Notes: a model not told the origin generated them from the sequence alone. A stretch of 64,000 nucleotides of DNA from Escherichia coli (GCF_013122565.1 NZ_CP053258.1); one strand, 5' to 3'; positions 1 through 42,264 are shown, numbered from the stretch's first letter. Made by a program: numbers and translations.

Positions 1-2268
1 ATGGCCGTTAAAGCCTCCGGGCGTTTTGTCCCTCCGTCAGCATTTGCCGCAGGCACCGGTAAGACGTTTACCGGTGCTTATGCATGGAACGCGCCACGCG
101 AGGCCGTCGGGCGCGAAAGACCCCTTACACGTGACGAGATGCGTCAGGTGCAAGGTGTTTTATCCACGATTAACCGCCTGCCTTACTTTTTGCGCTCGCT
201 GTTTACTTCACGCTATGACTACATCCGGCGCAATAAAAGCCCGGTGCACGGGTTTTATTTCCTCACATCCACTTTTCAGCGTCGTTTATGGCCGCGCATT
301 GAGCGTGTGAATCAGCGCCATGAAATGAACACCGACGCGTCGTTGCTGTTTCTGGCAGAGCGTGATCACTATGCGCGCCTGCCGGGAATGAATGACAAGG
401 AGCTGAAAAAGTTTGCCGCCCGTATCTCATCGCAGCTTTTCATGATGTATGAGGAACTCAGCGATGCCTGGGTGGATGCGCATGGCGAAAAAGAATCACT
501 GTTTACGGATGAGGCTCAGGATCACCTGTATGGTCATGTTGCTGGCGCTGCACGAGCTTTCAATATTTCCCCTCTCTACTGGAAAAAATACCGTAAAAGA
601 CAGATGACCACGAGGCAGGCATATTCTGCCATTGCCCGTCTGTTTAACGATGAGTGGTGGACTCATCAGCTTAAAGGCCAGCGTATGCGCTGGCATGAAG
701 CGTTACTGATAGCTGTCGGGGAGGTCAATAAAGACCGTTCTCCTTATGCCAGTAAACACGCCATTCGTGATGTGCGTGCGCGCCGCCAGGCAAATCTGGA
801 ATTTCTTAAATCGTGTGACCTTGAAAACAGGGAAACCGGCGAGCGCATCGACCTTATCAGTAAGGTGATGGGCAGTATTTCTAATCCTGAAATTCGCCGG
901 ATGGAGCTGATGAACACCATTGCCGGTATTGAGCGTTACGCCGCTGCAGAGGGTGATGTGGGGATGTTTATCACGCTGACCGCGCCGTCAAAGTATCACC
1001 CGACACGTCAGGTAGGAAAAGGCGAAAGTAAAACCGTGCAGCTTAATCACGGCTGGAACGATGAGGCATTTAATCCAAAGGATGCGCAGCGTTATCTCTG
1101 CCGTATCTGGAGCCTGATGCGCACGGCATTCAAGGATAATGATTTGCAGGTCTACGGTTTGCGTGTCGTCGAGCCACACCACGACGGAACGCCGCACTGG
1201 CATATGATGCTTTTTTGTAATTCACGCCAGCGTAACCAGATTATCGAAATCATGCGTCGCTATGCGCTCAAAGAGGATGGCGACGAAAGAGGAGCCGCGC
1301 GAAACCGTTTTCAGGCAAAACACCTTAACCGGGGCGGTGCTGCGGGATATATCGCGAAATACATTTCAAAAAACATCGACGGCTATGCACTGGATGGTCA
1401 GCTCGATAACGACACCGGCAGGCCGCTGAAAGACACTGCAGCGGCTGTTACCGCATGGGCGTCAACGTGGCGCATCCCGCAATTTAAAACGGTTGGCCTG
1501 CCGACAATGGGGGCTTACCGTGAACTACGCAAATTGCCGCGCGGCGTCAGCATTGCTGATGAGTTTGACGAGCGCGTCGAGGCTGCACGCGCCGCCGCAG
1601 ACAGTGGTGATTTTGCGTTGTATATCAGCGCGCAGGGTGGGGCAAATGTCCCGCGCGATTGTCAGACTGTCAGAGTCGCCCGTAGCCCGTCGGATGAAGT
1701 TAACGAGTACGAGGAAGAAGTCGAGAGAGTGGTCGGCATTTACGCTCCGCATCTCGGCGCGCGTCATATTCATATCACCAGAACGACGGACTGGCGCATT
1801 GTGCCGAAAGTTCCGGTCGTTGAGCCTTTGACTTTAAAAAGCGGCATCGCCGCGCCTCGGAGTCCTGTCAATAACTGTGGAAAGTTCACCGGCAGTGATA
1901 CTTCGTTAACGGCTTCCACACCTTCTGAACATGCCGCAGCCGTGCTTAATCTGGTCGATGACGGTGTTATCGAATGGAATGACCCGGATGTCGTGAGGGC
2001 GCTCAGGGGGGCATTAAAACACGAACTGAGAACACCAAATCGTCAGCAAAGAAACGGAAGCCCGTTAAAACCGCATGAAATTGCGCCTTCGGCCAGACTG
2101 ACCCGGTCGGAACGAATGCAAATCCCCCGTATCCGCGTTGACCTTGGTCAGAACGGTATCAGGCCTCAGCGATGGGAGCTTGAGGCGCTGGCGCGTGGGG
2201 CAACCGTAAATTATGAGGGGGTAAACTTCAGGTATCCGGTAAATGATGAGTGGCCGGGATTTAATTAA
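1..2268 (+). CDS. A: P2 gpA-like replication initiation protein (rolling-circle nickase); may be 5'-complete or truncated by the window edge
   Basis: 755-aa ORF starting at base 1, immediately upstream of the cargo locus and cos as in P2, where gpA is about 761 aa. Confidence 0.8.
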   Translation: MAVKASGRFVPPSAFAAGTGKTFTGAYAWNAPREAVGRERPLTRDEMRQVQGVLSTINRLPYFLRSLFTSRYDYIRRNKSPVHGFYFLTSTFQRRLWPRIERVNQRHEMNTDASLLFLAERDHYARLPGMNDKELKKFAARISSQLFMMYEELSDAWVDAHGEKESLFTDEAQDHLYGHVAGAARAFNISPLYWKKYRKRQMTTRQAYSAIARLFNDEWWTHQLKGQRMRWHEALLIAVGEVNKDRSPYASKHAIRDVRARRQANLEFLKSCDLENRETGERIDLISKVMGSISNPEIRRMELMNTIAGIERYAAAEGDVGMFITLTAPSKYHPTRQVGKGESKTVQLNHGWNDEAFNPKDAQRYLCRIWSLMRTAFKDNDLQVYGLRVVEPHHDGTPHWHMMLFCNSRQRNQIIEIMRRYALKEDGDERGAARNRFQAKHLNRGGAAGYIAKYISKNIDGYALDGQLDNDTGRPLKDTAAAVTAWASTWRIPQFKTVGLPTMGAYRELRKLPRGVSIADEFDERVEAARAAADSGDFALYISAQGGANVPRDCQTVRVARSPSDEVNEYEEEVERVVGIYAPHLGARHIHITRTTDWRIVPKVPVVEPLTLKSGIAAPRSPVNNCGKFTGSDTSLTASTPSEHAAAVLNLVDDGVIEWNDPDVVRALRGALKHELRTPNRQQRNGSPLKPHEIAPSARLTRSERMQIPRIRVDLGQNGIRPQRWELEALARGATVNYEGVNFRYPVNDEWPGFN

Positions 2269-2515
2269 TGCTTTGATTTTTTAGTTAGGCTGCTCTAGAA
2301 TCCACGCCAGTTACCGCTTGGGGTATCCTTGCATTGCTCTTGGTATTAGCTTTATACAAAGGGTGTAAAGGCTGCTATTGGCAACAATAGTGCTGGCATG
2401 GAGATAATCTCATGTTAAAGTTAGTGAAAGTACGTCAGTACAATCGCTATCGTTTCGGTAAGTGGGAGACGGTGTGTGAACACCGTCGTTCTTACCCAAC
2501 CCGATGATATGCGGC

Positions 2516-4735
2516 CTAAGCGGTAACGGTTTCCTCTTCCTCTTCGTCCATCATTTTCAAATAATGTTTTTCATCACCAGTCATACGAAAAATGGTTTTT
2601 AGTTGCTCCATATATTTCTCTGGAGATATATCTCCCATGTCTGTGATATTAACTGCATCTGAATGGGAACCTCTATTAATGTATCTATAAAATGCTCTAA
2701 AATCATTATTCTTATCATCGCTAGCAAGTTTATTTAACTCTGTCTGTAATGCATCCGTTCTATGAACAAATGCGAAGTAGTATTCCAGTATATTTCTCAT
2801 GATGTTAGGTATTATAACTTTATTTACCCTTCCATCCTTCGCATCTTTTAATACTTGCCATAGGGACTGGTATTCATTCTGAATGCTCTTTTTCTCTATT
2901 TCTGTAATTATGCTATATTCATTTTTTGTTACTCGTCCAAGATAATAATCACGCTTGAATGTTCTATCTTCTTTGCTTCTAGGAGCTAATTTGATAAGTT
3001 CATGAAAGAAATAAAGGTTATGTGTGAGTATTAATGTTTTCTTTACTGCTTTGTTATTGTTGATTATTTCATGGTGAATTATTGAAGCAATATCGTACAC
3101 ATAATTTTGAGAGAGGCTGGATATTGGATCATCAATAACGATAAATACATCTCGCATATCCGTATCATTCTTATCTGTCTTACCTTTACAGCATTCCAGA
3201 AAGTAGAGAAAGGTAATTAAAGTTTTTTCACCCTCGCTAAGAGATCTGTATACATCTTTATCTGTTGTGTTTTCAGAACGTGATATAATATATTTATCAT
3301 TGCTCTCAGTGTGTTTTTTTATGCTAAAACCATAAATTCCTAATAATTTTAGACGTTGATTTATAGAATCTATGGTTGCATCAATGTTAGATATTTGATC
3401 GCGTAGCTCTTTGATCTTTTTGCTATTGTTATCTCCTTGTTCTTTTATGGTATTTAATTCAAGTTGATATTGTTCATAAATGATTTTATAGTCATTCTCA
3501 TATTTTGAGAAAGCTTCAAACTCAGCGTTGCATAATTCTCTTATTGCTCCCCATATTTTGTAACGTATAGACTTTTCACTATCCTTAAATTGTTTGACTT
3601 TAATATTTATTTCTTTAATTCTATTGTTGTACTCTGCTATATTATCAACTACCTTTGCTTCAAGGTCGCTATTGGATTCCAAAATAATAGATATAGATGG
3701 GTTATTGATTTTATCTAACATCAATTTTAAGTTTTTGTTTGCTATTTCCTCTAGTAACGCTATATGAGATGATGTTATATCTTTTTCTTTTGAGGTGATT
3801 AATTCACAAGATGAAATCTCTTGTTTTATTTTTCTTAAATTATCTATGGTAGCGGATTCATAAGACGATCTGATAATGCGTATTTGGTCAACTTTCTTGG
3901 AGTAGCTATCATCAAAGATAGATTCAATTGCTTCTAAAAATTTGTCTTTAATAGTGTCTTCTTGGCAGAATGGGCAACATGTGCCATTTAAATATAATTC
4001 CTTCCCTTTTTTCACCCAGTCAAGGTTTTGAAGTTGTTTAATTGTTTCTGACAAATAGCTATTACTTGAGTCTATAATCGGAGTGGATAAAGATTCTTTA
4101 TCTTTTTCTGAAATGATATATTTTTCTAAAGGTGTAATTGATGCAGTGAATTTATCTTTGTTCTTTAAAAGAATACTATATTCTTGAGCAAGTGACTCGA
4201 TGTTAACGTCAGTGGTTTGAGGGGCTTTTTTAACTTGCTCATAAAATGATCTCTTGCTTCCTAACTGACCTTTCATCAAGTTCTTTAAGTCAGATGATCT
4301 AAAAGGTTCTGCTTTATTCCATATTAAATCAATATATTCATTTTCTTTATTGTTTTTATCTTTAATTAAACGCTCAATAACGTTTTTTTTATCTTTGTAT
4401 TTTGTAAGTAGGTCTTGTCTTATAGCTTCTTTTTCCAACAATTCTTTTTCAATGTCAGCATTTTCCTTACTTAAAGTGAATACTCCTTTTTGCTCTTTTG
4501 CATTATAAAAATTATCCTCAACAAACTTAGTATTATAAACCAATAGGCGAAAAGTATCTATGAAAGGACATTCGCATTCTTTGTAGTCCGTGTTATTTGG
4601 ATTATAGAAATAATTAGATATGGTTGATTTTCCACAACCGTTGTGACCATAAAGTATATTAATTTTTTTTGAGAGATTAAGAGTCGTGAAGCTATCTTTC
4701 TTATAGCTGGTTATATTCTTTAATTTAAGTTCCAT
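2516..4735 (-). CDS. Candidate antiphage/abortive-infection protein: split ABC/SMC-type ATPase with coiled-coil insert, CxxC motif and C-terminal HEPN-like domain (PrrC/RloC-like architecture, inferred)
   Basis: 739-aa ORF with ATG at 4733..4735 and GAGG-type RBS upstream. Walker A GHNGCGKST at residues 30-38; K/E-rich heptad-like region about 85-495 with CCPFC at 253-257; signature-like LSEGEK at 499-504; Walker B/D-loop VFIVIDDPISSLS at 530-542; H-loop LILTHN at 568-573; Rx6H (R684..H691) in the C-terminal ~150 aa. Much more AT-rich than the flanking phage genes. Sits at the P2 old/tin position. Confidence 0.8.
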   Translation of the reverse strand: MELKLKNITSYKKDSFTTLNLSKKINILYGHNGCGKSTISNYFYNPNNTDYKECECPFIDTFRLLVYNTKFVEDNFYNAKEQKGVFTLSKENADIEKELLEKEAIRQDLLTKYKDKKNVIERLIKDKNNKENEYIDLIWNKAEPFRSSDLKNLMKGQLGSKRSFYEQVKKAPQTTDVNIESLAQEYSILLKNKDKFTASITPLEKYIISEKDKESLSTPIIDSSNSYLSETIKQLQNLDWVKKGKELYLNGTCCPFCQEDTIKDKFLEAIESIFDDSYSKKVDQIRIIRSSYESATIDNLRKIKQEISSCELITSKEKDITSSHIALLEEIANKNLKLMLDKINNPSISIILESNSDLEAKVVDNIAEYNNRIKEINIKVKQFKDSEKSIRYKIWGAIRELCNAEFEAFSKYENDYKIIYEQYQLELNTIKEQGDNNSKKIKELRDQISNIDATIDSINQRLKLLGIYGFSIKKHTESNDKYIISRSENTTDKDVYRSLSEGEKTLITFLYFLECCKGKTDKNDTDMRDVFIVIDDPISSLSQNYVYDIASIIHHEIINNNKAVKKTLILTHNLYFFHELIKLAPRSKEDRTFKRDYYLGRVTKNEYSIITEIEKKSIQNEYQSLWQVLKDAKDGRVNKVIIPNIMRNILEYYFAFVHRTDALQTELNKLASDDKNNDFRAFYRYINRGSHSDAVNITDMGDISPEKYMEQLKTIFRMTGDEKHYLKMMDEEEEETVTA

Positions 4736-26811: not shown

Positions 26812-27030
26812 ATGTTTCATTGTCCTTTATGCCAGCATGCCGCACATGCGCGTACAAGTCGCTATATCACTGACACGACAAAAGAGCGTTATCACCAGTG
26901 TCAGAACGTGAATTGCAGCGCCACGTTCATCACTTATGAGTCTGTACAGCGATACATTGTGAAGCCGGGAGAAGTCCACGCCGTGAGGCCGCACCCGTTG
27001 CCGTCAGGGCAGCAAATTATGTGGATGTAA
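26812..27030 (+). CDS. ogr: Ogr zinc-finger late-gene transcriptional activator
   Basis: Internal start MFHCPLCQHAAHAR gives 72 aa as for P2 Ogr; CxxC...CxxxxC zinc-finger cysteines; last phage gene before att. Confidence 0.85.
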   Translation: MFHCPLCQHAAHARTSRYITDTTKERYHQCQNVNCSATFITYESVQRYIVKPGEVHAVRPHPLPSGQQIMWM

Positions 27031-27132: not shown

Positions 27133-27159
27133 AAAAAATAAGCCCGTGTAAGGGAGATT
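27133..27159. other. Prophage attR core (P2 att core)
   Basis: AAAAAATAAGCCCGTGTAAGGGAGATT, the 27-nt P2 attP/attB core from memory; it coincides with the 3' end of cyaR and marks the prophage/host junction. Confidence 0.55.
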
Positions 27160-27219
27160 ACACAGGCTAAGGAGGTGGTTCCTGGTACAGCTAGCATTTT
27201 ATGGGTTATGTTTTTCAGC
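27133..27219 (-). ncRNA. cyaR: CyaR (RyeE) Hfq-dependent sRNA
   Basis: Minus-strand sequence GCUGAAAAACAUAACCCAUAAAAUGCUAGCUGUACCAGGAACCACCUCCUUAGCCUGUGUAAUCUCCCUUACACGGGCUUAUUUUUU (87 nt) matches CyaR from memory, including the terminator hairpin; position between yegQ and ogr as in K-12. Confidence 0.75.
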
Positions 27220-27253
27220 GAAACGGATGATAACCTTAATAAATGCAGCTGTA

Positions 27254-27303: not shown

Positions 27304-28665
27304 TCACTTACCGTGGGGGTTACGCGTGGTTTCCCCGGAGAAATTACGCATCAGCAGCGCGTAATTCAGTTCAAGATCCTGCGGTACCGGGATCCAAACA
27401 GTATAACCATCGCCAGGTGCGACCGGCATAGCTTCACCTTTGGCGTTTTCCATGTGCTCAAGGGTAAAGTTAATGTTGCCTTGCGGCGTCATCAGCTCGA
27501 GGCTGTCGCCAACGGAGAATTTATTTTTCACCGCTACCGCCGCGAGGTCCCCCTTGCGCTCACCGGTAAACTCACCAACAAACTGCTGGCGGTCAGAAAC
27601 CGAATAACCGTATTCGTAGTTCTGATAATCGTCGTGAGTATGACGACGCAGGAAACCTTCGGTATAGCCACGATGCGCCAGACCTTCCAGAGTTTCCAGC
27701 AGGCTGGTATCGAACGGTTTGCCCGCAGCGGCATCATCGATAGCTTTGCGATAAACCTGCGCGGTGCGTGCGCAATAGTAGAAAGATTTGGTACGGCCTT
27801 CGATTTTCAGCGAATGCACGCCCATTTTGGTCAGGCGTTCAACATGGGCGATGGCGCGCAGATCTTTCGAGTTCATGATGTAAGTGCCGTGCTCATCTTC
27901 AAACGCGGTCATATACTCGCCCGGACGCTGGGCTTCTTCGATCATAAACACTTTGTCGGTTGGCGCGCCGATACCCAGCGTCGGCTCAACATTTTGCACC
28001 GGAATCGGCTCGTACTTGTGTACGATGTTGCCAACGTCATCTTCTTTCCCTTCCTGGACGTTGTACTCCCAGCGGCAGGCGTTGGTGCAGGTACCCTGGT
28101 TCGGGTCGCGCTTGTTGATATAGCCAGAGAGCAGGCAGCGACCGGAGTAGGCCATGCACAGTGCGCCGTGAACGAAGATCTCGATCTCCATATCCGGCAC
28201 CTGATTGCGGATCTCTTCAATCTCTTCCAGCGACAGCTCGCGAGAGAGGATCACGCGGGTCAGGCCCATTTGCTGCCAGAATTTCACCGTCGCCCAGTTT
28301 ACGGCGTTAGCCTGCACCGAGAGGTGGATCGGCATTTCAGGGAAGTGCTCACGCACCAGCATAATCAACCCCGGATCGGACATAATCAGCGCATCCGGCC
28401 CCATCTCCACCACCGGTTTCAGGTCACGGATAAAGGTTTTCAGCTTGGCGTTGTGCGGGGCAATGTTGACCACGACATAAAACTTTTTCCCCAGCGCGTG
28501 GGCTTCATTGATGCCGAGCTGAAGATTTTCGTGGTTGAATTCGTTGTTGCGCACACGCAGGGAGTAACGCGGCTGGCCCGCATAAACAGCATCTGCGCCA
28601 TAAGCGAAAGCGTAACGCATATTTTTCAGCGTTCCCGCCGGGGAAAGGAGTTCCGGTTTAAACAT
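27304..28665 (-). CDS. yegQ: U32-family peptidase-like protein YegQ
   Basis: 453 aa, same length as K-12 YegQ; conserved position next to cyaR. Confidence 0.9.
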   Translation of the reverse strand: MFKPELLSPAGTLKNMRYAFAYGADAVYAGQPRYSLRVRNNEFNHENLQLGINEAHALGKKFYVVVNIAPHNAKLKTFIRDLKPVVEMGPDALIMSDPGLIMLVREHFPEMPIHLSVQANAVNWATVKFWQQMGLTRVILSRELSLEEIEEIRNQVPDMEIEIFVHGALCMAYSGRCLLSGYINKRDPNQGTCTNACRWEYNVQEGKEDDVGNIVHKYEPIPVQNVEPTLGIGAPTDKVFMIEEAQRPGEYMTAFEDEHGTYIMNSKDLRAIAHVERLTKMGVHSLKIEGRTKSFYYCARTAQVYRKAIDDAAAGKPFDTSLLETLEGLAHRGYTEGFLRRHTHDDYQNYEYGYSVSDRQQFVGEFTGERKGDLAAVAVKNKFSVGDSLELMTPQGNINFTLEHMENAKGEAMPVAPGDGYTVWIPVPQDLELNYALLMRNFSGETTRNPHGK

Positions 28666-28767
28666 AATTCTCTCGTTCTGATGACAGGTCAGATCCGCTT
28701 CACCTGATGAAGCGGCCAGGGGAGTGCCCCCACTTTAAGGGCGGGCATTGTAGCGCAATCGGCGGGT

Positions 28768-29064
28768 TTAGCTCCAGTGTAAATGTCTGGTGGCGTCCTG
28801 GTTTTGGTTAAGGATACGAATGACGATAATTTCCCCTGGTGATTGCAGGAAATAAATTACGTGGCGTTCAAAAGGAAGAACAAAAATACCTTCGCCTAAT
28901 TCAGGTCTGGGCGTACCTATATTATTGTTACTCAGAATCTGGAGAACGTCTGAAAGATGTTCCACATATCTGTCGGCTTGTGGTTCGCCGAAATGGTGAT
29001 AACTGTAATACCAGATGCCTTCTAAATCCTCATTGGCTTTTGGCATGAGTTTAATAATACGCAC
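28768..29064 (-). CDS. ParE/RelE-family type II toxin
   Basis: 98 aa; pattern ...GEGIFVLPFERHVIYFLQSPGEIIVIRILNQNQD typical of ParE toxins; starts one base after the antitoxin stop. Confidence 0.7.
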   Translation of the reverse strand: MRIIKLMPKANEDLEGIWYYSYHHFGEPQADRYVEHLSDVLQILSNNNIGTPRPELGEGIFVLPFERHVIYFLQSPGEIIVIRILNQNQDATRHLHWS

Positions 29065-29065
29065 A

Positions 29066-29317
29066 TTATTTCCTTATCCCTGCTTTCACCTTCCGTAAAA
29101 ACGCGTCCTTTTCCCACGGCTGAGCTTCACCACTACTCAACCCTTCTGCAAGCATGTCACGTAATGCTTGCAGGCGAGACTCTGCTTGCTTTTCTCGAAG
29201 TAAGCGCAGTGACTCACGGATCACTTCGCTTTGGGTGCGATAGTCGCCGGATTCAATTAAGGACTCGATAAATTCACGCAACTCATCGCCGAGATCAACC
29301 GTCATCGTTCTGGCCAT
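29066..29317 (-). CDS. ParD-like ribbon-helix-helix antitoxin
   Basis: Start chosen at MARTMTVDLGDELREFIESL (83 aa); small acidic RHH-like protein immediately upstream of the toxin; the track ORF extends to 29413. Confidence 0.65.
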   Translation of the reverse strand: MARTMTVDLGDELREFIESLIESGDYRTQSEVIRESLRLLREKQAESRLQALRDMLAEGLSSGEAQPWEKDAFLRKVKAGIRK

Positions 29318-29562
29318 TTTACGTCCGCCTGTAAGTAAAAATCTTACATCAGTGTATTTCATAAAACGCATAGCGTCACGAAAGTATTGGAAGATATTTT
29401 GGCATATGAACATGTTCAGGAGGGGATGGTAAACAAAGAAAGCACAACGAGTGCTCGTCAGTGCCCACTATTTTAATGGCGGAGGTTAATCTTAATTATC
29501 AATAACTAAGCGTTATTTTGATATAAAGCCGGACGCCAACAAACCCACGCCCGGCATCGTAA

Positions 29563-29895
29563 TTACGTATTGTCTTTTACCGTCTGACTTGTGCCATTGG
29601 CTTTAACGGAGGCAATTCCGGTTTCACGAGATTGCGCGGTGGCGTACATCTGGCTGGAGCCGATAATTTGATGATTGGCGGCTTTCAGATTGAAATAGAA
29701 TTTGCCGTTGCTTGCCGTTTTTTTCTCATAGCGTTCTTCTTGCGGGCTGTTGCTACGCACCGACGCGATGCCCTTTTCCGCAGAGGCTTTTGAGGTATAC
29801 AGCTCGCTGGTGAGGATAGTCTCACCATTGCCCGCTTTTAGCACAAACCGGAATTGATTATCACTGCTCTTACTGAGTTCAAACCAACCAGCCAT
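29563..29895 (-). CDS. yegP: DUF1508/UPF0339 protein YegP
   Basis: Start MAGWFELSK gives 110 aa as in K-12 YegP; two tandem DUF1508-like halves; next to baeR. Confidence 0.85.
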   Translation of the reverse strand: MAGWFELSKSSDNQFRFVLKAGNGETILTSELYTSKASAEKGIASVRSNSPQEERYEKKTASNGKFYFNLKAANHQIIGSSQMYATAQSRETGIASVKANGTSQTVKDNT

Positions 29896-41284: not shown

Positions 41285-41425
41285 CAGCGGGACGCTGAAA
41301 CGGGAAAGCCCCTATAAGGAAAGGGTCATGATGAAGTGGATCATCATCGTGGTGCTCTTAGTCATAAGCTTCCCGGCTTACTAAGACTACCAGGGCGGGG
41401 GAAACCCCGCTCTACCCTCACTCCT
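41285..41425 (-). ncRNA. Sib antisense RNA (antitoxin) opposite ibs copy 1; ends approximate
   Basis: In K-12 each ibs ORF lies wholly inside a ~140-nt antisense Sib RNA (established knowledge); the extent here is estimated and no promoter or terminator was mapped. Confidence 0.3.
41328..41384 (+). CDS. Ibs-family type I toxin peptide (MMKWIIIVVLLVISFPAY)
   Basis: 18-codon hydrophobic ORF with GGAAAGGG RBS-like sequence upstream; Ibs family signature MMK...ILV...ISFPAY. Confidence 0.75.
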   Translation: MMKWIIIVVLLVISFPAY

Positions 41426-41611
41426 GAAATTATGCCTTCACGATAAGATTGTCAATCCGCAGGCTTTGTAGTCTGCGATCCTGCCAGCAAATATTCTTTG
41501 CGAGTCGTTACGCAATAATCACACTGGAAACTATTTTATCCGCAAGTCAGCGATAGACTGCATACAGGGCGAAAGGAGGTAAGCCGACGATTTCAGCGGG
41601 ACGCTGAAACG

Positions 41612-41752
41612 GGAAAGCCCCTCCCGAGGAAGGGGCCTTAAATAAGGAAAGGGTCATGATGAAGATACTCATCATCGTGGTGCTCTTAGTGATTAGCTAC
41701 CCAGCATACTAAGACTACCAGGGCGGGGGAAACCCCGCTCTACCCTCACTCC
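41612..41752 (-). ncRNA. Sib antisense RNA opposite ibs copy 2; ends approximate
   Basis: As for copy 1. Confidence 0.3.
41656..41712 (+). CDS. Ibs-family type I toxin peptide (MMKILIIVVLLVISYPAY)
   Basis: Second repeat copy, same frame and context as the first. Confidence 0.75.
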   Translation: MMKILIIVVLLVISYPAY

Positions 41753-41941
41753 TGAAATTATGCCTTCACGATAAGATTGTCAATCCGCAGGCTTTGTAGT
41801 CTGCGATCCTGCCAGCAAATATTCTTTGCGAGTCGTTACGCAATAATCACAGAGGAAACTATTTTGTTCACGCGTTAGCGATAGACTGCATTCAGGGCGA
41901 AAGGAGGTAAGCCGACGATTTCAGCGGGATGCTGAAACGGG

Positions 41942-42085
41942 AAACCCTCTCCCGGAGAAGAGGGCTTTTAATAAGGAAAGGGTTATGATGAAGCACGTCA
42001 TCATACTGGTGATACTCTTAGTGATTAGCTTCCAGGCTTACTAAGAACACCAGGGGGAGGGGGAAACCTCTCCCTAACCCTCACT
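41942..42085 (-). ncRNA. Sib antisense RNA opposite ibs copy 3; ends approximate
   Basis: As for copy 1. Confidence 0.3.
41985..42044 (+). CDS. Ibs-family type I toxin peptide (MMKHVIILVILLVISFQAY)
   Basis: Third repeat copy; 19 codons; closest of the three to K-12 IbsA from memory. Confidence 0.75.
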   Translation: MMKHVIILVILLVISFQAY

Positions 42086-42264
42086 CCTGAAATTATGTCA
42101 CTCCGCCCTTAGTGTCAATCGACGGCTCTCCGTTCTTGCGAGGCGAATAGCAAAATTTTCTGCGCCGCCGGGCCTAATTCTGAAAGTTTCTTCGTTTGCT
42201 CTTATTTCATTATTGCAATCGGTATGATACCGGACCTCGATAATTCTCTAAGAAAGGATTTCTT

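Follow-up and report, generated by a model that had tools for sequence, protein, structure and literature searches.

The ParE toxins of RK2, Caulobacter crescentus and Vibrio cholerae have been shown to poison DNA gyrase, and the mechanism assumed below is taken from these systems. Antitoxins named ParD are not all of one kind, and that of RK2 belongs to a different family, PF09386, than the one described here (PMC7848731). The closest solved structure for both proteins of the present pair is that of PrpT/PrpA from the P. rubra plasmid pMBL6842 (PDB 7YCS; PMC7848731, PMC9731233). Here, we examine a 64,000-nucleotide stretch of Escherichia coli DNA (GCF_013122565.1, NZ_CP053258.1), hereafter called the window, in which positions 28,768 to 29,317 hold two short genes. 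These very probably form a type II ParD/ParE toxin-antitoxin operon within a 771-bp accessory insert in the yegP-trhP gap, a self-contained module that is related to plasmid parDE, unrelated to the neighboring prophage and long resident in Escherichia; the toxicity of its ParE, gyrase as the target and the binding of the operator are predicted. The system is of a known kind. Public databases, RefSeq among them, already list the two proteins as ParD and RelE/ParE, and their exact sequences each occur on at least 1000 public contigs under those names.

A preliminary description of the window had reported two short minus-strand genes between yegQ (trhP) and yegP, the antitoxin gene first and the toxin gene second, and both open reading frames are found where it placed them and in that order. 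It had called the genes overlapping and yet separated by one base, which is contradictory; the genes adjoin without overlap, with the single base 29065 between them. The assignment to the ParD/ParE family, for which it had proposed searches with ParE and ParD/ribbon-helix-helix profile hidden Markov models, was borne out. ParD matches Pfam PF03693 (ParD_antitoxin; 4.3e-19, 69.2 bits, curated cut-off 21) and TIGR02606 (2.3e-25, 88.4 bits, curated cut-off 46.2), and ParE matches PF05016 (ParE_toxin; 1.8e-13, 51.3 bits, cut-off 23) over profile positions 1-88 of 89. As all of these matches exceed the curated cut-offs, the pair is not a product of chance. The antitoxin-toxin order is moreover kept in all of the more than 40 homologous loci that have both genes, and the parE product is identical to RefSeq WP_001220181.1.

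Among proteins of solved structure, ParD is most similar to PrpA (7YCS_D, 1.9e-27), with further matches to V. cholerae ParD2, C. crescentus ParD1 and Mycobacterium tuberculosis ParD1, and its residues 1-78 align residue for residue with all four. These alignments, together with a weak RHH_1 match over residues 6-42, indicate that the N-terminal half of ParD is a DNA-binding ribbon-helix-helix and that its C-terminal half binds the toxin. The ParE sequence finds only ParE-type toxins among solved structures (PrpT at 2.3e-12, MtParE1, CcParE1, VcParE2 and Mesorhizobium ParE). Because both PF05016 and the RefSeq name span RelE as well as ParE, the structure of the toxin was modeled. The AlphaFold model (predicted local distance difference test, pLDDT, 91.5; predicted template modeling score, pTM, 0.82) has the N-terminal helical hairpin and β-sheet typical of ParE (strand E3-6, helices H8-25 and H27-46, strands E60-65, E68-74 and E78-86). 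In a Foldseek comparison of this model with the PDB, ranks 1-23 are all taken by ParE-type toxins (template modeling score, TM, 0.66-0.88), with PrpT at the top (TM 0.88, root-mean-square deviation 1.1 Å), and RelE, YoeB and YafQ rank below them (TM at most 0.67). No match to either protein was returned by the PADLOC defense-system models at E <= 0.001.

The boundaries of the insert follow from aligning the window jointly with K-12 and strain 48, and from the limits of BLAST matches. The insert starts right after the terminator hairpin of yegP and stops right before the shared GCGCTACAATG, and it holds the two genes only, with no transposase, integrase, tRNA, flanking direct repeat or convincing terminal repeats. 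A 20-nt, 80%-complementary pair of segments (28785-28804 and 29525-29544) was considered as a sign of transposition and is treated as chance, because one of its arms is the yegP terminator stem, which is also present in K-12. By megablast, the pair is carried by 34% of complete E. coli genomes (1843 of 5426), every copy being single, chromosomal, full-length and at least 95% identical. In K-12 MG1655 the pair is absent and the yegP-yegQ gap measures 146 bp; O157:H7 Sakai likewise lacks it (147-bp gap), and BL21-AI gives the same short two-piece match. The expectation that K-12 would have yegP next to yegQ without the pair, for which an alignment check had been suggested, was thus correct, as was the view of the pair as a strain-variable insertion: it is accessory, not core. 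Plasmid matches at 99% identity turned out to be chromosomes mislabeled as plasmids (records of 1.4 and 4.8 Mb). A seeming partial remnant in E. coli HS-01 (L066, NZ_CP172817.1, approximately 2094800-2095700) is most likely an assembly artefact; its parDE coding region is homopolymer-rich and of the right length, with about 77% identity, and its flanks are clean.

The insert also changes the surroundings of trhP. Its end lies 4 bp upstream of a -10-like TACAAT (28747-28752), a hexamer which in K-12 has TTTACC 17 nt upstream and which in the carrier window has nothing -35-like upstream. No terminator-like site was seen between the parE stop codon and the start of trhP (28666-28767). In carriers, judging from these motifs, transcription of trhP may differ or may read through from parDE.

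The structure of the operon can be read in part from conservation. The ribosome-binding site of parE falls within the 3' end of parD, a placement that suggests translational coupling, and E. whittamii and the 10 further intact E. coli alleles all have it unchanged. In alignments, the GTG with which parE begins corresponds to ATG start codons in its homologues from other genera. For parD, every homologue begins with MART... at ATG 29317, and other alleles have AGGAGA 8 nt ahead of this same ATG. At this locus (the window and loci L002, L003, L055, L062 and L063), the RefSeq model of ParD comprises 98 amino acids from ATG 29362 (WP_001307279.1, WP_001305156.1), and alleles in which one more C precedes ATG 29317 are flagged as frameshifted, while their 83-residue frame is intact. 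The 98-residue model is over-extended and the pseudogene flags are artefacts, because homologues start at MART..., a ribosome-binding site precedes 29317, and ATG 29362 lies upstream of the putative -10 hexamer.

In the 100 nt upstream of parD, the only non-coding block that is conserved is the inverted repeat TGTAAG-N7-CTTACA, as seen in a comparison of 15 loci from Escherichia, Buttiauxella, Cedecea, Pantoea, Enterobacter, Citrobacter, Rahnella, one Enterobacteriaceae isolate and a metagenome bin. The alignment gives its fuller form as TGTAAGA-N5-(T/A)CTTACA (window 29348-29330). A Klebsiella aerogenes plasmid has the repeat too, and a Salmonella plasmid has it in a form that differs by one base (CTTATA). 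The repeat occurs once in the window, against 0.06 occurrences expected, and each homologous locus with an exact match has it once, just upstream of parD. It begins 2-3 nt after a -10-like hexamer, which is TACACT here and TATACT in several genera (Buttiauxella, Cedecea, Rahnella), and its TGTAAG half-site resembles the motif TTTG(T/A)AAT footprinted for PrpA (PMC7848731). From its conservation and position, TGTAAG-N7-CTTACA is likely the ParD operator, overlapping the start of transcription. A promoter is proposed just upstream, because homologous loci carry equivalently placed hexamers (TTGACG-17-CAAACT in L011, TGGACG-17-TAAACT in two plasmids); the -35-like hexamer of a metagenome-bin relative is TTGACG.

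Further upstream, at 29407-29418 and about 30 bp from the putative -35, lies the perfect 12-bp palindrome TGAACATGTTCA, conserved in the E. coli and E. whittamii alleles; it was not adopted as an operator, being confined to Escherichia and absent from the homologous loci of other genera. The window allele has a private 10-bp deletion at about 29424, where CCATNCTTAT is present in 12 of 12 other alleles including that of E. whittamii, and a T-to-C change at 29386. Both lie upstream of the putative -35 and leave the core hexamers and the operator unaltered.

Taken as a whole, the module would work as follows. A sigma-70-type promoter, GTGACG-17-TACACT, would drive parD and then parE. ParD would dimerize through its ribbon-helix-helix N-terminus, bind TGTAAG-N7-CTTACA just downstream of the -10 hexamer and repress the operon, while its C-terminus would wrap ParE and neutralize it. 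If ParD were lost, free ParE would be expected to poison DNA gyrase. The toxicity of ParE, its gyrase target and any benefit to the host are inferred by analogy with the described systems.

Plasmid relatives place the module in a wider context. Salmonella, Klebsiella and Citrobacter carry the nearest mobile relatives found, on large plasmids. On pRM11065-1 (Salmonella) and pC9_001 (K. aerogenes), ParD is 87-90% and ParE 64-65% identical, with homologous operator and promoter, and a RepB gene is situated about 1.4 kb away from the pC9_001 module. In Citrobacter braakii ATCC 51113 (L016, 5001-5798), an intact parD, 92.5% identical to ParD of the window, stands between two parE fragments (residues 37-97 upstream, 1-44 downstream), the toxin being rearranged or broken.

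The yegP-trhP gap is a hotspot with several alternative occupants: parDE in about 34% of the genomes, an alternative island in 5.5% and, in the rest, mostly nothing, with an occasional insertion sequence (for example IS3 in the empty site of strain BKQWHE), in agreement with the plasticity described for toxin-antitoxin insertion sites of E. coli (PMC7167474). The alternative island, of 5.3 kb, is present in 298 of the 5426 genomes, including Nissle 1917 and FDAARGOS_1255 (L059, 1468-6794), and its four genes encode PcfJ-domain, DUF1266, DUF4034 and hypothetical proteins, none of which was matched by PADLOC. It is bracketed by remnants of the parDE insert, 62 bp (29527-29466) on one side and 30 bp (28786-28757) on the other, with ACATTTACACTGGAGCTAAACCCGCCGATT of the right end still present at the island/trhP junction in FDAARGOS_1255; since both insert ends bracket it, the island replaced the interior of an earlier parDE. 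The pair itself is found at the same site in E. whittamii (ParD 98.8%, ParE 95-96% identical), and Escherichia sp. E3659 (L070, 2834-3176) still has the insert's left end together with the final approximately 135 nt of parE at 90.7% identity. As this pair and this remnant show, the insert is old in the genus. In the decayed E3659 site, a stretch of about 15 bp between these two pieces agrees with the left junction of the four-gene island, which suggests that the island had inserted into parDE there and that a deletion followed.

From these alleles, the simplest reading appears to be an insertion into an originally empty site, old within Escherichia and not a recent strain-level event, with later exchange of the insert between lineages via the conserved flanks and its loss, erosion or replacement in some of them. 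Conversely, the pair could be ancestral at the site and have been deleted from genomes of the K-12 type. We regard this as unlikely, although the shared site in E. whittamii, the remnant in E3659 and the two insert ends around the Nissle-type island would all fit it, and although the last two demonstrate that occupied sites do decay and are replaced. What speaks against deletion is that E. albertii, K-12 and O157 Sakai share a clean gap of 146-147 bp with a near-identical filler of 21-22 bp. This filler was considered as a worn-down parE tail, and its similarity to that tail is no greater than that of shuffled sequence (p 0.09-0.6). In addition, synonymous divergence (dS) between the window and E. 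whittamii is far lower in parD (0.18) and parE (0.16) than in the flanking trhP, baeR and baeS (0.39-0.50) and yegP (1.0), with 18 synonymous differences seen in parDE where about 40 would be expected (p 8e-5); this suggests a transfer of the module between lineages later than the split of E. coli from E. whittamii. Another origin comes to mind in view of the P2-like prophage (tail, D and ogr genes) that spans the window from position 1 to approximately 27100 and abuts CyaR, at a position where K-12 has only ogrK and a partial D remnant. The preliminary description had left open whether the pair stabilizes this prophage or is a separate small island. What favors a link is the distance, about 1.5 kb to CyaR and 1.7 kb to the ogr stop at 27030, taken as the prophage end, and the existence of a prophage-borne ParE system in E. 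coli O157:H7, paaR2-paaA2-parE2 (PMC7167474), but trhP and CyaR intervene. Co-occurrence was determined with a synthetic query in which the D-ogr end of the prophage and the insert are both needed for 80% coverage. A junction between the prophage end and trhP occurs in 722 of the 5426 genomes, and 262 of these have the pair as well, against 245 expected (odds ratio 1.13, p 0.16, not corrected for phylogeny). Most carriers of the pair, 1581 of 1843 (86%), have no prophage at the site, 460 of the 722 prophage genomes have no pair, and strain 48, strain 97-3250 and E. whittamii carry the pair alone. Among 50,697 phage records no full-length homologue was found, only one 42-residue fragment. The module is independent of the adjacent P2-like prophage, the option of a separate small island was the right one, and it is extremely improbable that the pair belongs to the prophage or stabilizes it.

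As to function, substitution patterns point to purifying selection on the pair (ratio of non-synonymous to synonymous divergence, dN/dS, against E. whittamii: 0.03 for parD and 0.11 for parE). The value for parE, together with the full-length state of all 1843 copies, lends indirect support to a ParE that would be toxic alone and neutralized by ParD. Several points nevertheless weigh against the preferred reading. The proposed promoter scores 8 of 12, under the threshold of a consensus scan, which gave no coding-strand promoter ahead of parD; none of the NCBIfam models matches the ParE toxin specifically; and a literature search found no paper on this particular pair or locus and no experiment that bears on the pair. 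At the equivalent of the key Trp25 of V. cholerae ParE2, where Tyr alone retains full toxicity, the toxin has Phe25, as does PrpT. Moreover, in 11 intact E. coli alleles, taken from identity-ranked lists in which divergent alleles are over-represented, parD has 6 synonymous and no non-synonymous differences, its product being identical in 11 of 11, whereas parE has 5 synonymous and 8 non-synonymous ones (Fisher p 0.018), among them D90Y (strains 1428 and FUJ80154), which alters a residue kept by at least 90% of homologues; this hints that the toxin is less constrained than the antitoxin. The module might therefore be kept mainly for its antitoxin, with ParE attenuated or drifting and ParD acting as an anti-addiction or cross-regulating factor against related plasmid parDE, a role reportedly argued for chromosomal ccd. 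The Phe at position 25, the uneven variation of the two proteins, the HH97 allele, in which both genes are disrupted, and the plasmid relatives, with a ParD so much closer than their ParE and the same operator, would be in line with it. Even so, we consider it unlikely, as the window encodes the common ParE, WP_001220181.1, which recurs in 5 of the 10 further intact alleles sampled, parE has a dN/dS well under one, all 1843 copies are full-length, and the allele sample is enriched for divergent alleles. That the locus is retained chiefly for ParD, by way of anti-addiction or cross-repression of incoming plasmids with a related parDE, is a decidedly unlikely proposal on these sequences. If it were true, a carrier locus would disarm or mis-regulate such plasmids and might, by analogy with PrpA, disturb the control of their copy number, and a third of E. 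coli strains would differ in their tolerance of them. A RelE-type toxin, that is, a ribosome-dependent mRNA endonuclease instead of a gyrase poison, is very improbable. The RefSeq name reads only "RelE/ParE family toxin", PF05016 covers both, and the fold is common to both groups, but the sequence matches and the Foldseek ranking described above favor ParE throughout, the partner is ParD (PF03693) and not RelB, and the terminus of the protein coincides with those of PrpT and MtParE1. An intact and well-supported ParD/ParE operon, with a toxin predicted to act on gyrase, stays the preferred reading. The coordinates of the locus and its neighbors are given in Table 1.

Table 1. Features of the parDE locus and adjacent genes, in window coordinates.
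Feature	Position	Strand	Details
Accessory insert	28757..29527	-	771 bp, in place of the K-12 21-bp filler GCTTTACCAGAGCCCCCCACA
parD antitoxin gene	29066..29317	-	ATG 29317, TAA 29068-29066, 83 aa
parE toxin gene	28768..29064	-	GTG 29064, TAA 28770-28768, 98 aa
parD ribosome-binding site AGGCGG	29325..29330	-	7 nt before ATG; predicted from sequence
parE ribosome-binding site AAGGAA	29070..29075	-	within parD 3' end, 5 nt before GTG
Inverted repeat TGTAAG-N7-CTTACA, probable ParD operator	29330..29348		between putative -10 and parD ribosome-binding site; from conservation
Putative parDE promoter	29351..29379	-	-35 GTGACG (29379-29374), 17-nt spacer, -10 TACACT (29356-29351); predicted from sequence
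yegP terminator-like hairpin	29528..29555	-	GCCGGGCG...CGTCCGGC; left boundary of the insertion point, also in K-12
Insert left end (yegP side)	29466..29527	-	kept in genomes with the alternative four-gene island; FDAARGOS_1255 matches to 29466
Insert right end	28757..28786	-	last 6 parE codons, stop, 11 bp beyond; non-coding beside the alternative island
yegP	29895..29563		DUF1508 match
trhP (yegQ)	28665..27304		NCBIfam TrhP match, 2.7e-264
CyaR	27136-27221		between ogr at the prophage end and trhP; ~1.5 kb from the parE stop codon

The window holds another toxin-antitoxin locus. SIB RNAs are the antitoxin RNAs of the Ibs/Sib type I toxin-antitoxin repeats, and Rfam RF00113 matches three of their genes in tandem (141-150 bits) between mdtA and yegL, on the minus strand (41313-41455, 41641-41783 and 41970-42118). 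K-12 presumably has two at this locus, sibA and sibB, and the copy number there appears to vary.

By itself, one more accessory ParDE module matters little in E. coli, whose mosaic of toxin-antitoxin systems is already well documented. The use of the analysis may lie in its detail: the exact boundaries of the 771-bp insert, a likely operator that eight named genera have in common, the independence from the prophage, the insertion hotspot and the pseudogene artefact in RefSeq. For other ParDE families, acquisition has been statistically linked to later quinolone-resistance mutations in E. coli (PMC10575684). With this link, the action of ParE toxins on gyrase and carriage in a third of strains, the pair makes a reasonable, if low-priority, candidate for tolerance tests.

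Compared with known systems, the pair is closest to PrpT/PrpA, with which it shares a ParE toxin, a PF03693 antitoxin and Phe in the α1-α2 loop of the toxin; PrpA aligns near-colinearly with ParD over 77 residues and PrpT is 32% identical to ParE. PrpTA is plasmid-borne, however, and PrpA binds origin iterons and thereby limits copy number, whereas the pair of the window is chromosomal and has no replicon to control. A copy-number controller of this type was rejected, all 1843 copies being chromosomal and the operator motif occurring only once in the window. The classical ParDE systems (RK2, C. crescentus ParDE1, 3KXE; V. cholerae ParDE2, 7R5A; M. tuberculosis ParDE1, 8C24) have the same fold, an antitoxin-then-toxin operon and a ribbon-helix-helix antitoxin, but their ParE is only 26-31% identical, and the toxin of the window lacks Trp25 of V. 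cholerae ParE2. The ParE-fold toxin of paaR2-paaA2-parE2 in the O157:H7 prophage CP-933P (PDB 5CW7; TM 0.77) is likewise found in E. coli, but in a three-component, prophage-borne system with PaaA2 as antitoxin and 16-17% ParE identity, unlike the two genes here, which lie off the prophage. ParDE-I of IncI/IncF plasmids (PMC6614396) shares the name and the E. coli host; with an antitoxin of family COG3905 and a toxin of 93 residues, it was rejected as a member of the same lineage. In its setting, the locus resembles ccdO157, a plasmid-related, gyrase-targeting type II module that lies between core genes in some E. coli only, with other elements at the site elsewhere, and for which there is a similar contrast in constraint between antitoxin and toxin, as suggested for the window pair; ccdO157 belongs to the unrelated CcdA/CcdB family, and the decay of its toxin has been shown experimentally. 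The parDE modules of pRM11065-1 and pC9_001 have the same operon, operator repeat and promoter region as the window pair, and differ in that their ParD has 88 residues and overlaps parE, while the ParD of the Escherichia chromosome has 83 residues and ends one base before parE.

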